64,000 nucleotides of DNA from the NCBI GenBank assembly GCA_027343225.1, contig DAHWMK010000022.1:6849-70848 (forward strand). The letters are read 5' to 3'. A model generated the notes under the pieces. That model ran no database searches. It saw nothing but the letters and a program-made list of their open reading frames with translations, and was not told the DNA's origin. This document shows, one piece after another, positions 40,562 through 43,948 of the stretch. Source of the stretch: Thermoplasmatales archaeon (lineage in GTDB: Archaea > Thermoplasmatota > Thermoplasmata > Thermoplasmatales > GCA-001856825). A program made the translations under genes and the position numbers. How positions within the stretch are numbered: position 1 is the first letter of the stretch; every line of letters starts with the position of its first letter.

Positions 40562-43500
40562 CTAGCGTTTTACCACCCCCTTCAGCTTCGATTCAGTGCT
40601 AAAAATTTCATCCCTCGATAGGGATTTGATCAATGCATCCATCTCTCTGATCTTTGAAGCAAACCTGTTGCCTTCTGCTGCGCTGACCCACCATAACTGC
40701 AATCTATCCGGGTTGACTTTCTTCGCTTCTAGGAAGTGCCTCCACCTTTCAACTCTCTTTTCCGTGTACTCGTTTGCGTCAATGTAGTGGCAGTCGTTTA
40801 TGTGACAGCCGGTGACGAGTACGGCCCCCGGGTTCCTGCTGAAAGCATACATGACCAACTTTTGAGATATTCTGCTTGAGCACATGGTCCTGATAACACG
40901 TGCGCTCGGAGGATATTGGATTTTTGAAATTCCTGCTTGATCTGCCCCAGCGTAGGAACACCAGTTGCAAGCAAAGACAACCAACTTCTCCTCGGGTTTT
41001 TCAGCGGTTGCGGCATCTATCTGTGTCATAATTTCAGTGTCTGTGAAATTAGGCATAGTGATGGCCCCTTCTATATTGCACTCCGCTACACAATTTCCAC
41101 ATCCCATGCATGCTGCGGGAACTAGATTTATCCACTTCCCCCTCTCTCCCTTAATCGCTCCATATGGGCAGACTTCGGCGCATCTAAGGCACTTCACGCA
41201 CTTTTTCTCGTCTATCTGTGGTATTATGGGTTCCTTGTTTATTTTACCACTAAACAGAAGTTTCGCTGCCTTGGCGGCGGTCGCATATCCCTGCGCTATG
41301 GACTCCTTCACACCTTTCGGTCCCTGAACAGTCCCGGCAAGGAATACCCCTTGGACGGCAGCCTCTACGGGCCCGAGTTTGGGGTGGACTTCCAGTAAAA
41401 ACCCTTCGCTATCTCTCGAGAGTTTTAGTTGAGTGAATATCTCCTCATCCTTTGGTTTCAGTCCAATGTTCAGCACAAGATGATCGACCGGCGCCTTCAT
41501 CTTTGCGGAAGACAGATGATCCAAGAAGGTCAGCGAAGAACCGTCAAATTCCAGAGCTTCATTTGGTAATTTGGAGGGATCGTATCTGAAGAATTGAACA
41601 CCCTTCTCTCCAGCCTTTCTGTATAGTTCCTCCGCATTTCTCTCGTATGCCCTAATGTCTTTGTAAAACACCCGGACGATCTTTCCCTTTTCCTTCAAAC
41701 TAATCGCCTGTTGGAGCATGGTAGAACAGCAGAATCTCGAACAACCTCTCTCTCCGTTTCTAGAGCCTACGCATGAAATCATGGCATATTTGTCACCCTC
41801 TATCTTCGAGTAGTTCTTCTCTAGGTCGAGAGAAGTTATCACCTCCGGGACCTCTCCATACTTGAATTCAGTTGGCTGGTATGGATCCGCTCCTGTAGCA
41901 AGGATGATCGCACCTGCATCAATTTTCTCCCCATCTGAAAGTTTGCACGAGAAGTTCCCTACAAAACCTGTTATTTCATCTACCCTTGTGGAGGTGTGAA
42001 CGATTGCACCAGATTTCTGCAATCCTTCCTTCAATTTCTGAAGGGTATTACCGGCACTCTCTAGTTCAGGAGAAATGATGTCTATCGAATTCAGGAGGCC
42101 TCCCAACTTCTCTTCTTTTTCAACCAAGTGGACCTCAATTCCCATTCTAGAGAGGGAAGAGGCAGCCGCAATTCCTGCAGGTCCTCCGCCTATGACGATG
42201 CCAGTTCTGATTACGGGAAACTCGATGTCCTCAAGTGGAGTGAGCAGCCTTGCCTTTGAAACTGCCATGTTCACTATGTCCACCGCCTTTTCAGTTGCTG
42301 GAACTTTCTCCTTTTTGTGGACCCACGAGTCCATGTTTCTAACATTGGCCATCTCAAATAGATATGGGTTCAACCCAGCTCTGGAACACACTCTCTGGAA
42401 TGTCACACCGTGCGTCTTGGGAGAACAGGCCCCAACGACAAGCCTGTTCAGTTTCTTCTCTATTATCTTCTCCTTTATAGAATCCTGTGTGCTCCCAGCA
42501 CAGGTGTATTTATTCTCCTCCACATAAACCACGTTGGGCATTGCCCTAATCTCGTCCGCAACCCTCTTGACGTCAACGACTCCAGCAATGTTGGACCCGC
42601 AGTCGCACAGGAAAACACCAATTCTCGGGTCCCCAGAGACGTCCAGGGGAGGGGGCAGGGGCTCCTCTATCCATTCTCTCTTTTTCACGTATCTCAGGGC
42701 CTGGGCCGTTGCAGCAGACGCTTCGGTCACGCTATCCGGGATGTCCTTGGGCCCGGAGGCGCATCCAGCAACGAAGATTCCATTTCTCGTCGTAGAAACC
42801 GGGTCCTCGAGTCTGTTCTTGAAGAATCCGTCCTCAGAAAGTTCAATTCCAAGTGTCTTCGCGAGCTTTGGAGTACCCTTTGAGGGAATGGAAGCGGTTG
42901 CAAGAACAACCATTCCGTACTCTTCCTCCATGATCGAACCGTCATTAGTTGCATACCTTACGGATATGTTGTCGCCGCTCCTCTTCACCGATGCGGGTCT
43001 TGATCTTATGTATCGAACGTCCTTCTGAGACCTAGAGTAAAGTTCGTCGAATCCCTTTCCGTAGGCACGTATGTCCATGTAAAGCACAGTCACGTTCTTT
43101 ATTCCGTGGTCGACCAGCTGGGTTGCCTCCTTTATTGAGTACATGCAGCACGTCCTCGAACAATAGGGGACAAACCTGGTGTCACGAGATCCAGCGCAGA
43201 GAACGAACAATACGCTATCCGGATGCTTTCCGTTTGATGGTTTTATAACCTCTCCGTCGGTTGGTCCAGCTGCATTTATGAGTCTTTCCAGTTCATATGA
43301 CGTGAGAATGTCCGGATCGGAAGAATATCCGAATTCGTCAAGAAGTGATGCATTGAACAGGTCAAAGCCTGTTGCCACTATTATGGAGGCGACGTTTTCA
43401 GTTATCACGTTGGGTTTCATGTTAAAGTCTATAGCATCTGGTCCGCAAGCGTCTGTGCATCGTCCGCAAGGAAGATAGTTCGGAGGATCGTTCAGGCAAC

Positions 43501-43948
43501 TCTCTATATCTATGACGTAAGGTCCAGGCTCCGCCTGGGGAAATGGAGTATATATTGCCTTTCTTGCTCCAACTCCGGCATCAAACTCGTTCTTTCGAAT
43601 CTGGGGACATGCCTGAGTGCACAGATCACACCTGGTGCATGCATCTGTAACAAACCTCGGCTTCTGATTTATTGTCACCTGGAAATTGCCCTCCTCCCCC
43701 TTCACCTCAGTGACCTCTGCCAGAGTGAGCACCTTGATGTTTGGATTGTGGGTCACGTCACTCATCTTGGGGGCTTCAATGCATATAGAACAATCAAATG
43801 TCGGAAAATTCTTGTCTAATGCAGCCATCTTACCGCCGATGGACGCAGTCTTCTCCACCAGCAATACTTCTGCCCCTGCCTCGGCTAGGTCAAGAGATGC
43901 CTGAATACCCGCTATTCCTCCTCCTATGATCAGTACCTTATCTGCCAT
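40562..43948 (-). CDS. Tandem HdrA-like flavoprotein fused to a 2x[4Fe-4S] ferredoxin and an MvhD/FlpD domain (1128 aa from ATG 43948; 1138 aa from TTG 43978)
   Basis: Numbering is from the TTG start.
- Module 1: GGGIAGIQASLDLA (aa 19-32), inserted ferredoxin CTRCDLCTQACP / CGRCTDAC, and HdrA motif CAGSRDTRFVPYCSRTCC (aa 261-278).
- Linker: HdrA C-terminal-type region IGVFLCDCGSNI...VVGACSPKTH...ANVRNMDSWVH.
- Module 2: GGGPAGIAAASSL (aa 597-609) and variant motif CVGSRNGERGCSRFCC (aa 736-751).
- Ferredoxin: CVKCLRCAEVCP / CMGCGNCVAEC (aa 927-967).
- MvhD-like: VVFACNWCSYAGAD...VLVTGCHINDCHY (aa 1000-1065).

ATG 43948 is preferred because a GAGGGGG stretch precedes it. Confidence 0.85.
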   Translation of the reverse strand: MADKVLIIGGGIAGIQASLDLAEAGAEVLLVEKTASIGGKMAALDKNFPTFDCSICIEAPKMSDVTHNPNIKVLTLAEVTEVKGEEGNFQVTINQKPRFVTDACTRCDLCTQACPQIRKNEFDAGVGARKAIYTPFPQAEPGPYVIDIESCLNDPPNYLPCGRCTDACGPDAIDFNMKPNVITENVASIIVATGFDLFNASLLDEFGYSSDPDILTSYELERLINAAGPTDGEVIKPSNGKHPDSVLFVLCAGSRDTRFVPYCSRTCCMYSIKEATQLVDHGIKNVTVLYMDIRAYGKGFDELYSRSQKDVRYIRSRPASVKRSGDNISVRYATNDGSIMEEEYGMVVLATASIPSKGTPKLAKTLGIELSEDGFFKNRLEDPVSTTRNGIFVAGCASGPKDIPDSVTEASAATAQALRYVKKREWIEEPLPPPLDVSGDPRIGVFLCDCGSNIAGVVDVKRVADEIRAMPNVVYVEENKYTCAGSTQDSIKEKIIEKKLNRLVVGACSPKTHGVTFQRVCSRAGLNPYLFEMANVRNMDSWVHKKEKVPATEKAVDIVNMAVSKARLLTPLEDIEFPVIRTGIVIGGGPAGIAAASSLSRMGIEVHLVEKEEKLGGLLNSIDIISPELESAGNTLQKLKEGLQKSGAIVHTSTRVDEITGFVGNFSCKLSDGEKIDAGAIILATGADPYQPTEFKYGEVPEVITSLDLEKNYSKIEGDKYAMISCVGSRNGERGCSRFCCSTMLQQAISLKEKGKIVRVFYKDIRAYERNAEELYRKAGEKGVQFFRYDPSKLPNEALEFDGSSLTFLDHLSSAKMKAPVDHLVLNIGLKPKDEEIFTQLKLSRDSEGFLLEVHPKLGPVEAAVQGVFLAGTVQGPKGVKESIAQGYATAAKAAKLLFSGKINKEPIIPQIDEKKCVKCLRCAEVCPYGAIKGERGKWINLVPAACMGCGNCVAECNIEGAITMPNFTDTEIMTQIDAATAEKPEEKLVVFACNWCSYAGADQAGISKIQYPPSARVIRTMCSSRISQKLVMYAFSRNPGAVLVTGCHINDCHYIDANEYTEKRVERWRHFLEAKKVNPDRLQLWWVSAAEGNRFASKIREMDALIKSLSRDEIFSTESKLKGVVKR

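Follow-up and report, generated by a model that had tools for sequence, protein, structure and literature searches.

We analysed a 64,000-nt stretch of DNA from a Thermoplasmatales archaeon (assembly GCA_027343225.1, contig DAHWMK010000022.1, positions 6,849 to 70,848 of the forward strand), referred to here as the window. An operon of eight genes occupies positions 37685-46748 of its minus strand in the order 2-oxoacid:ferredoxin oxidoreductase (OFOR) δ, α, β and γ, hdrA~hdrA~mvhD, hdrD-like, etfA and etfB; the last two encode an electron transfer flavoprotein (ETF), and neighbouring genes either overlap by 4-11 nt or sit 35 nt apart. The subject of this work is the hdrA~hdrA~mvhD gene, whose product carries two HdrA flavin modules, a dicluster ferredoxin and an MvhD domain on one chain and is a new member of the published fused-HdrA ("type II", BamE-like) architecture. 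Fused double HdrAs, with or without MvhD, have already been catalogued and BamE has a structure, so the architecture alone adds little. The value lies in the context, a packed operon that joins an OFOR, a double HdrA~MvhD, a soluble EtfD-like HdrD and an ETF in at least 58 species genomes. Full-text literature searches turned up no description of this OFOR–HdrA~HdrA~MvhD–HdrD–EtfAB operon; the review by Appel et al. 2021 (BBA Bioenergetics) may cover it. The operon appears to represent a variant of the HdrA-type bifurcating systems that has so far escaped description.

The longest open reading frame (ORF) of the region extends over 40562..43978 on the minus strand and gives 1138 aa when read from a TTG. 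The ATG at 43948, its eleventh codon, was taken as the start because the orthologue consensus opens there with MxDxVLVIGGG and independent gene callers choose it, giving a product of 1128 aa to which all residue numbers below refer. An earlier note on this DNA had used the ATG as its end coordinate while counting residues from the TTG, hence its residue numbers run 10 higher. After subtraction of this offset all the motifs that it quoted were present, namely both GxGxxG motifs, both cluster motifs, both ferredoxins and MvhD, and the single-chain architecture that it described was borne out, with three ferredoxin-like units in the 1128-aa ORF.

Seven contigs from separately built ENA and JGI assemblies encode the 1128-aa product with 100% identity. 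Full-length orthologues numbered at least 120 (1089-1190 aa, 54-100% identity) and were hosted by Thermoplasmata, Nitrososphaerota/Aigarchaeota, Chloroflexota, Rokubacteria (according to the source annotation), Armatimonadota and one haloarchaeon. A relative is encoded in 264 species-representative genomes, and the nearest genome is a Thermoplasmata metagenome-assembled genome (MAG) at 94% identity. Public records name the orthologues "hydrogenase iron-sulfur subunit", "Cinnamate reductase", "RnfABCDGE type electron transport complex subunit B" or "FAD-dependent oxidoreductase". The earlier note had allowed for an assembly fusion of adjacent genes, and we considered whether two neighbouring hdrA genes were joined by an assembly or frameshift error. 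The identical contigs, the orthologues and the 264 genomes led us to reject this explanation, in favour of which nothing was found; the linker region is also well ordered in a structural model (below), and the long ORF is almost certainly not an artefact.

Domain map and cofactor sites of the double HdrA

Domains were mapped by phmmer against solved structures, with HdrA of M. thermolithotrophicus (Mt HdrA; 5ODC_A, 654 aa) as the reference. Residues 3-377 align to HdrA 144-519, the thioredoxin reductase (TrxR) core with its inserted ferredoxin; residues 440-582 align to HdrA 3-145, the N-terminal Fe-S domain; residues 842-979 align to HdrA 509-648, where the TrxR core ends and the C-terminal ferredoxin follows; and residues 986-1110 align to MvhD (5ODC_D, E 3.6e-32). 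An MvhD/FlpD profile also matched at 990-1110 (PF02662, E 8.2e-43, profile positions 2-122 of 123). The predicted domain order is a TrxR core with inserted ferredoxin (TrxR1, module 1), an HdrA N-domain, a TrxR core without inserted ferredoxin (TrxR2, module 2), a C-terminal ferredoxin and MvhD (Table 1). The segment at 440-582 containing CDCGSNI...ACSPKTH...SWVH, which had previously been read as an HdrA-type C-terminal region of module 1, is by this alignment the N-terminal Fe-S domain and belongs with module 2.

A BLASTP comparison of module 2 (576-905) with Mt HdrA gave two collinear matches, at 33% identity over 140-232 and 36% over 318-568. Because these flank the inserted ferredoxin (HdrA ~237-315), module 2 corresponds to an HdrA TrxR core from which that insertion is missing. 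Matches of module 2 to GltD, TrxR and Nfn were weak and limited to the dinucleotide-binding fold. A generic GltD, NfnB or TrxR domain, an outcome for which the earlier note had allowed, was rejected since module 2 aligns to HdrA on both sides of the missing ferredoxin and keeps the HdrA cluster motif; it is a genuine HdrA TrxR core.

An AlphaFold2 model of the 1128 residues, built from 74 orthologues, had a mean predicted local distance difference test (pLDDT) score of 88.9 and a predicted template modelling (pTM) score of 0.88, which indicates that the modelled chain forms a compact body with a fixed domain arrangement. Confidence was low only in two loops, residues 41-60 with Cys53/56 and residues 451-460 with Cys448/450, as would be expected if both bind one common cofactor, which the model does not contain. 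In Foldseek comparisons, whole HdrA chains superposed on the model with a template modelling (TM) score of 0.75, a root-mean-square deviation (rmsd) of 3.3 Å and 33-35% identity, a match assigned by identity and length to the part made up of N-domain, TrxR2 and C-terminal ferredoxin. The partial HdrA chain 8rvu_a (TM 0.93, rmsd 1.5 Å, 47% identity) was assigned to module 1.

Each module carries a GxGxxG motif, at 9-14 (with E32) and at 587-592 (with E610), and both are kept in the 120 orthologues. The acidic residue that closes strand beta-2 and the C-terminal flavin motif G-x-[FY]-x-A-G...PKD of the TrxR-type FAD domain are likewise found in both modules. The cluster motif of module 1, CAGSRDTRFVPYCSRTCC at 251-268, is canonical, and that of module 2, CVGSRNGERGCSRFCC at 726-741, has N/Q/D in place of Asp and a 4-residue spacer. 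In the alignment of the 120 orthologues all 37 predicted cluster-ligand cysteines were 100% conserved; they lie in module 1 and its inserted ferredoxin, the N-domain, module 2, the C-terminal ferredoxin (eight) and MvhD (Table 1), and their invariance excludes chance as the origin of the cluster motifs. The predicted cofactors are seven [4Fe-4S] clusters, one [2Fe-2S] cluster and two flavin adenine dinucleotides (FAD). The earlier note had regarded the second motif as degenerate and its cluster as possibly lost. All four of its cysteines are invariant and variation is confined to the Asp position and the spacer length, which argues against degeneracy; the change sits instead in the flavin site.

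Glu356 and Lys409 of Mt HdrA are published markers of the bifurcating HdrA flavin (PMC12054007, PMC9430772). The equivalent of Glu356 is E221, invariant, in module 1 and E710, kept in 92% of the orthologues, in module 2. The equivalent of Lys409 is K273, again invariant, in module 1, while in module 2 the position is G, N or Q and never Lys, with the residue beside it, Q747, nearly invariant. Mt Cys194/Cys197 correspond to Cys53/Cys56 in module 1 and to variable Ser/Asn positions in module 2. Judged by these residues, the bifurcation hallmarks are carried by module 1 alone. The two modules are also complementary in their accessory parts, the Cys pair and inserted ferredoxin being on module 1 and the N-terminal Fe-S domain and C-terminal ferredoxin on module 2. 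This is the pattern of published fused HdrAs (PMC9012536) and of BamE, and it upholds the suggestion of the earlier note that a heterodimer-like HdrA core is encoded in one chain.

To trace the origin of the two modules, we examined the 153 closest relatives, namely the window protein, two references and the 150 best clusters at 50% identity; 131 of the 153 contained two TrxR cores. By best profile fit, the N-terminal core of these double HdrAs was of the module 1 class in 131/131 and the C-terminal core of the module 2 class in 128/131. Lys was retained in 119/131 N-terminal and 77/131 C-terminal cores, and the window family appears to belong among the double HdrAs whose second flavin does not bifurcate. 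Module 1 shares 45% identity with canonical Mt HdrA and 28% with module 2. Because the N- and C-terminal cores sort into two classes and module 1 is nearer to HdrA than to module 2, the sequence comparison points to an ancient fusion between distinct HdrA classes and not to the tandem duplication that had been proposed; type II HdrA has likewise been described as joining two distinct type I classes (PMC12054007). A recent duplication of hdrA, after which the second copy decayed towards a degenerate motif and a lost cluster, would account for the Asn and shorter spacer in the module 2 motif and for the absence of an inserted ferredoxin, Cys197 and Lys from this module. Besides the class assignments and identities, however, the strong constraint on the cluster cysteines, FAD motifs and E710 of module 2 speaks against decay, and we regard this origin as very improbable. 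Also improbable, if not to quite that degree, is that both flavins bifurcate and provide two independent sites per protein, as suggested for type II HdrA of methane-metabolising archaea. Both TrxR domains of those proteins keep E356 and K409 (PMC12054007), and Lys is found in many C-terminal cores of the relatives, as counted above. Against this, Lys never occupies the module 2 position in the 120 orthologues, the equivalent BamE flavin is not at the branch point, and module 2 is without the inserted ferredoxin and Cys pair, so that it would have no low-potential exit of its own.

The operon and its partner proteins

Conservation of the operon was assessed by tblastn of the window's proteins on 80 species loci. 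HdrD, EtfA and EtfB lay downstream of the double HdrA in 65/65 loci with room for them, and OFOR γ, β and α lay upstream in 62/62. All eight genes were present in 59 loci, and in 58 neither their order nor their strand differed. Represented among the loci are Thermoplasmata, Nitrososphaerales, Anaerolineales/Chloroflexota, Elusimicrobiota, Zixiibacteriota and Armatimonadota, from two archaeal phyla and at least four bacterial ones. When the flanking ORFs of the 80 loci were all clustered, no further conserved neighbour emerged within 7 kb; in particular, no acyl-CoA dehydrogenase, hydrogenase, NADH module or disulfide carrier was conserved over this distance, and Pfam and NCBIfam searches of the conserved families identified no AOR-like or HydABC/NuoEFG-like gene. 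The full operon is also present in a genome deposited as Halalkaliarchaeum sp. AArc-GB, which is not flagged as a MAG (locus L090, 888-14479); there it adjoins a second OFOR, in the order γ-δ-α-β, and a gene for a DmsR-type regulator.

All four OFOR subunit types were matched by Pfam, with 1yd7 and 8ys5 as the best PDB matches. The α subunit passes NF006412 (486 vs 411 bits) and its next-best named matches are 2-oxoglutarate enzymes, so that by sequence the OFOR type appears closest to the 2-oxoglutarate (Kor/Oor) enzymes. The HdrD-like protein combines an HdrC-like dicluster domain with two CCG domains, has no membrane part and retains the CC pair in each of its CCG motifs. Among solved structures it comes nearest to the mycobacterial ETF dehydrogenase EtfD, whose soluble region it matches at E 4.7e-48 (9OJN), compared with E 8e-4 for HdrB. 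A TTG start at 40526 is needed for this protein to take in its first CxxCxxCxxxCP motif, which is conserved in 64 orthologues; some public calls shorten it to 339 aa (contigs L001 and L002), and another gives 362 aa (L004). The hdrD-like gene is followed immediately by etfAB, with a 4-nt overlap into etfA. For EtfA and EtfB the best matches were all bifurcating ETFs (CarDE, Bcd-Etf, LctBC, EtfABCX; E 1e-35 to 1e-57), with simple ETFs at 1e-17 to 1e-25. The EtfB motif that reads DGDTAQVG in the bifurcating-ETF sequences aligned with it is DGATGQVP in the family consensus and SDAALGQLP in the window protein.

Table 1. Positions in the window of the hdrA~hdrA~mvhD gene, its predicted domains (residue numbers from the ATG) and the other operon genes.
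Feature	Position	Strand	Description
hdrA~hdrA~mvhD gene	40562..43948	-	1128 aa from ATG; stop codon 40562-40564
Module 1 (residues 1-430)	42659..43948	-	HdrA TrxR core; 45% identity to Mt HdrA 140-573; FAD motifs, Cys53/Cys56, cluster Cys251/263/267/268, E221, K273
Inserted 2x[4Fe-4S] ferredoxin of module 1 (~residues 96-175)	43424..43663	-	Eight invariant Cys (104/107/110/114 and 151/161/164/168); predicted low-potential branch
HdrA N-terminal (MvhD-like) Fe-S domain (440-575)	42224..42631	-	Cys448/450/483/508; aligns to Mt HdrA 3-145
Module 2 (580-900)	41249..42211	-	HdrA TrxR core without inserted ferredoxin and without the Cys194/197 pair; Cys726/736/740/741; FAD motifs; Lys replaced, adjoining Q747 nearly invariant
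C-terminal 2x[4Fe-4S] ferredoxin (905-970)	41039..41236	-	Motif at 917-957
MvhD/FlpD (986-1110)	40619..40993	-	Five invariant Cys (994/997/1023/1048/1053), predicted [2Fe-2S]; E 3.6e-32 to 5odc_D
OFOR delta	46440-46748	-	2x[4Fe-4S] subunit
OFOR alpha	45307-46443	-	POR_N/PFOR_II
OFOR beta	44468-45310	-	Thiamine pyrophosphate-binding
OFOR gamma	43938-44471	-	POR; stop overlaps hdrA start by 11 nt
Soluble HdrD-like (HdrC-HdrB fusion)	39438..40526	-	2x[4Fe-4S] and two CCG / non-cubane-cluster domains
EtfA, large ETF subunit	38467..39441	-	Closest to bifurcating ETFs, E 1e-49 to 1e-57
EtfB, small ETF subunit	37685..38470	-	Closer to bifurcating than to simple ETFs

Upstream of the operon and on the same strand are gcvPB and gcvPA, encoding glycine dehydrogenase subunits 2 and 1 (47039-49855). 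A tRNA-Leu(CAA) gene at 46931-47016 (minus strand) separates them from OFOR δ and marks the upstream operon boundary. The glycine-cleavage P-protein genes were rejected as part of the operon because of this intervening tRNA and because they are not conserved in the 80 loci. A gene for a DDE transposase (33752-34705, minus strand) lies ~3 kb downstream of the operon and, on the identical contig L001 (19244-20197), matches Pfam DUF772 / DDE_Tnp_1. A scan of 37000-50500 for sigma-70 promoters and intrinsic terminators, with models ill-suited to an archaeon, gave no enrichment over shuffles.

Relatives of the double HdrA occur with other partners. A Thermoplasmata locus (L085, 5069-16085) encodes OFOR δαβγ, a double HdrA (994 aa), a separate MvhD, a CCG protein (333 aa), a canonical HdrA~MvhD (819 aa) and an HdrD orthologue (373 aa), and has no ETF genes. 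In a Hodarchaeota locus (L087, 3098-14331), two FrhB-like genes and a CCG gene are followed by a double HdrA, an MvhD (with a weakly scored helix-turn-helix match), a second double HdrA and a second MvhD, and in a Methanomassiliicoccales-related locus (L088) the double HdrA is followed by MvhD and CCG. A further locus, from a Logan assembly (L089, 7001-13857), combines a double HdrA~MvhD (1162 aa) with an FrhB-like gene and glutamate-synthase domain genes (GXGXG, Glu_synthase) and may encode an Hdr-linked glutamate synthase. Because it is combined with differing input and output modules across these four loci, the double HdrA can be regarded as a reusable core, and its association with an OFOR recurs in at least two gene layouts.

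A candidate soluble bifurcating or confurcating complex

Observed domain homology, conservation of residues and ligands, and conservation of the operon form the basis of the following proposal; from them we infer the physical assembly, the arms used by OFOR and ETF, and the direction of electron flow. We favour, with moderate confidence, a model in which the chain is a single-chain pseudo-dimer of two HdrA classes with a C-terminal MvhD and forms the core of a soluble bifurcating or confurcating complex made from the eight-gene operon, whose products probably form one such flavin-based complex. By analogy with BamDEF-ETF and Hdr-Fwd, the folded chain would be an asymmetric pseudo-dimer of HdrA in which just one FAD bifurcates. 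This flavin would be held by module 1 (E221, K273), the cluster of which would lead to the HdrD-like subunit. On the high-potential arm EtfAB would dock on the HdrD-like protein, as ETF does on BamD and with EtfD and the related EMO. The low-potential arm would run through the Cys pair, the N-domain cluster and the inserted ferredoxin and would be wired to the OFOR via its δ subunit, in place of BamBC or Fwd. The Thermoplasmata locus L085, in which an OFOR is likewise combined with a double HdrA, MvhD and CCG proteins, counts in favour of the model. A third, entry arm would consist of the N-terminal Fe-S domain, the C-terminal ferredoxin and MvhD, supplied with module 2, whose own FAD, without the Lys, is probably non-bifurcating or structural, as in BamE.

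Thermodynamics leaves the OFOR, whose couple lies at ~-500 mV, no role but that of low-potential partner. With the ETF near 0 mV, the third couple would lie near -250 to -320 mV, the level of NAD(P)H or F420, and a bifurcating-type ETF might itself supply an NAD(H) site. The complex would thus link the 2-oxoacid/acyl-CoA+CO2 couple (~-500 mV) to ETF-level or NAD(H)-level electrons. It could work oxidatively, confurcating electrons from the OFOR and the ETF to an acceptor of intermediate potential in amino-acid or fatty-acid catabolism, or it could use bifurcation to drive reductive carboxylation, i.e. 2-oxoacid synthesis.

Several points weigh against this model. Co-assembly of the operon products is argued from gene order alone. 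No module for mid-potential input (hydrogenase, Fdh, Flx, BamGHI-like or FrhB-like) was found in the operon or within 7 kb of it in the 80 loci, which leaves a three-port HdrA-type scheme incomplete. EtfAB resembles bifurcating, NADH-binding ETFs and not the simple ETF of class II benzoyl-CoA reductase, so an NADH input instead of an acceptor is possible, and the CC pairs of the HdrD-like protein, like those of true heterodisulfide reductases, make a thiol/disulfide substrate conceivable.

The last two points meet in a different assignment of the arms, which we consider rather unlikely. Here EtfAB would be the NADH-oxidising input to the bifurcating FAD, the HdrD-like protein would reduce a disulfide or another high-potential acceptor, and the OFOR would run reductively on the low-potential electron. 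In the Bcd-Etf reaction NADH is the mid-potential donor between ~-500 mV and ~0 mV, and it would suit that role here. The closeness of EtfA and EtfB to bifurcating ETFs, the nearness of the EtfB consensus motif to theirs, the CC pair in both CCG motifs and the lack of any other NAD(P)H module in the operon all fit such an arrangement. However, known contacts of ETF with HdrD-like domains (EtfD, EMO, BamD) run via the ETF α-FAD, a precedent for ETF docking on MvhD was not found, no candidate gene for a disulfide carrier recurs within 7 kb across the 80 loci, and the EtfB motif of the window protein itself has diverged. The protein might otherwise be a genuine CoB-CoM heterodisulfide reductase subunit, HdrA2, as its NCBIfam score would name it (NF040770, 1169 bits vs a 1100-bit cut-off). 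This is extremely improbable: the 777-position model is matched in three permuted stretches and not collinearly, and the cut-off is passed only through the summing of two cores, the extra TrxR core adding to the score, a point of relevance to annotation. Furthermore, the operon has no hdrB or hdrC gene, the partner being HdrD-like with the weak HdrB likeness noted above, and membership of the Methanosarcina-type HdrA2 was rejected. The operon is moreover found in Anaerolineales, Elusimicrobiota, Zixiibacteriota and Armatimonadota, groups that are not known to be methanogens.

It is quite possible, if somewhat short of probable, that the bifurcating or confurcating complex favoured here constitutes an uncharacterised class of soluble enzyme in which an OFOR is hard-wired to an HdrA pseudo-dimer and an ETF is docked on a membrane-free EtfD-like subunit. 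If the products do form one complex, they would be a new partner set for HdrA-type bifurcation and a candidate answer to how anaerobic heterotrophs join ferredoxin-, NADH- and ETF-level electrons without a membrane. The very low-potential electrons from 2-oxoacid oxidation could be merged with ETF-level electrons from acyl-CoA dehydrogenases or, in reverse, NADH could drive reductive carboxylation via the bifurcating-type ETF. This would provide respiration-independent redox balancing in uncultured heterotrophs that are widespread, among them Thermoplasmata, non-ammonia-oxidising Nitrososphaerales, Anaerolineales, Zixiibacteriota, Elusimicrobiota, Armatimonadota and, reportedly (by source annotation), Rokubacteria. 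The complete operon in Halalkaliarchaeum sp. AArc-GB may make the idea of a complex testable.

Relation to known systems

The earlier note had called the architecture unusual. The 131 double-TrxR proteins among the closest relatives examined do not bear this out, nor does the literature: fusions of two HdrAs further joined to MvhD have been reported from Asgard and TACK archaea (17/54; PMC11237513), and Chadwick et al. (PMC9012536) described fused or tandem HdrAs with complementary Cys197 and N-domain. The window protein shares two TrxR cores in one chain and this complementarity with the type II or fused HdrAs of anaerobic methanotrophic archaea (ANME), methanogens, Asgard and TACK. Its N-terminal core, like the commonest stripped-down class A6 (PMC12054007), has neither N-domain nor C-terminal ferredoxin. 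Two differences stand out: in the type II proteins of PMC12054007 the Glu and Lys are kept in both flavins, here in module 1 alone, and published type II HdrAs are encoded near molybdopterin oxidoreductase/FdhAB-like, FrhB or HdrBC genes, the window's near OFOR and EtfAB.

All four HdrA domain types and MvhD of the canonical methanogen complex HdrABC-MvhAGD (5ODC) are present with their ligands. Unlike that homodimer, the window protein is a single, asymmetric chain in which each accessory domain occurs once, a fused HdrD-like protein takes the place of HdrB and HdrC, and the hydrogenase and CoM/CoB context is absent. The HdrA of the HdrCBA-MvhD-MetVF methylene-tetrahydrofolate reductase of Sporomusa ovata and Moorella thermoacetica (PMC9430772) likewise has an extra N-terminal TrxR, an MvhD-like N-domain, a TrxR without inserted ferredoxin and a C-terminal ferredoxin, and that of S. 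ovata has the Glu/Lys signature on one flavin only. It differs in having five predicted clusters in S. ovata, against seven predicted here, and a GltD insertion in Moorella, with HdrBC and MetVF as partners and a separate MvhD.

EtfD and EMO are ETF:(methyl)menaquinone oxidoreductases (PDB 9OJN; PMC13083937; bioRxiv 10.64898/2026.08.18.745454), and they, like BamD, exchange electrons with the ETF α-FAD via an HdrD-like domain that carries non-cubane clusters. The HdrD-like neighbour shares with EtfD/EMO the HdrC-like dicluster and the non-cubane-cluster domain. Unlike them it is without a transmembrane haem domain and keeps both CC pairs of its CCG motifs, and one Cys of its first CxxC is missing (SPHC).

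The closest comparison is with class II benzoyl-CoA reductase of Geobacter metallireducens, for which a cryo-electron microscopy structure has been described (PDB 29QY; bioRxiv 10.64898/2026.04.10.717634). There BamE is a fused HdrA dimer with a bifurcating FAD in TrxR1 (Lys280), a non-bifurcating, probably structural FAD in TrxR2 (Gln768) and a Cys59-Cys62 pair between flavin and cluster E3; BamF is an MvhD adaptor, BamD is HdrD-like, and the ETF docks on the non-cubane clusters of BamD as high-potential acceptor. BamE was not recognised among the 185 retrieved relatives in a screen by published residue positions. Membership of class II benzoyl-CoA reductase was rejected, the conserved genes including no AOR-type BamB/BamC and no HydABC-like BamGHI. 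In the window's system MvhD is fused, where in Bam it is separate, and is without the extra domains and selenocysteine of BamF; a four-subunit OFOR, as would-be low-potential module, stands where Bam has the tungsten enzyme BamBC; the operon has no BamGHI-like NADH/ferredoxin input; and the ETF is of the bifurcating-like clade. Both systems have an MvhD-type adaptor and an HdrD/HdrBC-like subunit, which in Bam is, and in the window's system would be, the high-potential arm with an ETF partner. BamE and the window protein both begin with TrxR1; the seven [4Fe-4S] clusters and two FAD of BamE equal the number predicted for the window protein, and key residues have near-identical positions (C59/C62 and C53/C56, K280 and K273, Q768 and Q747, the last beside the Lys position), compared through the residue numbering of the preprint and not by alignment. 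From these published positions we infer that the window protein is collinear with BamE, with a BamF-like domain fused to it.

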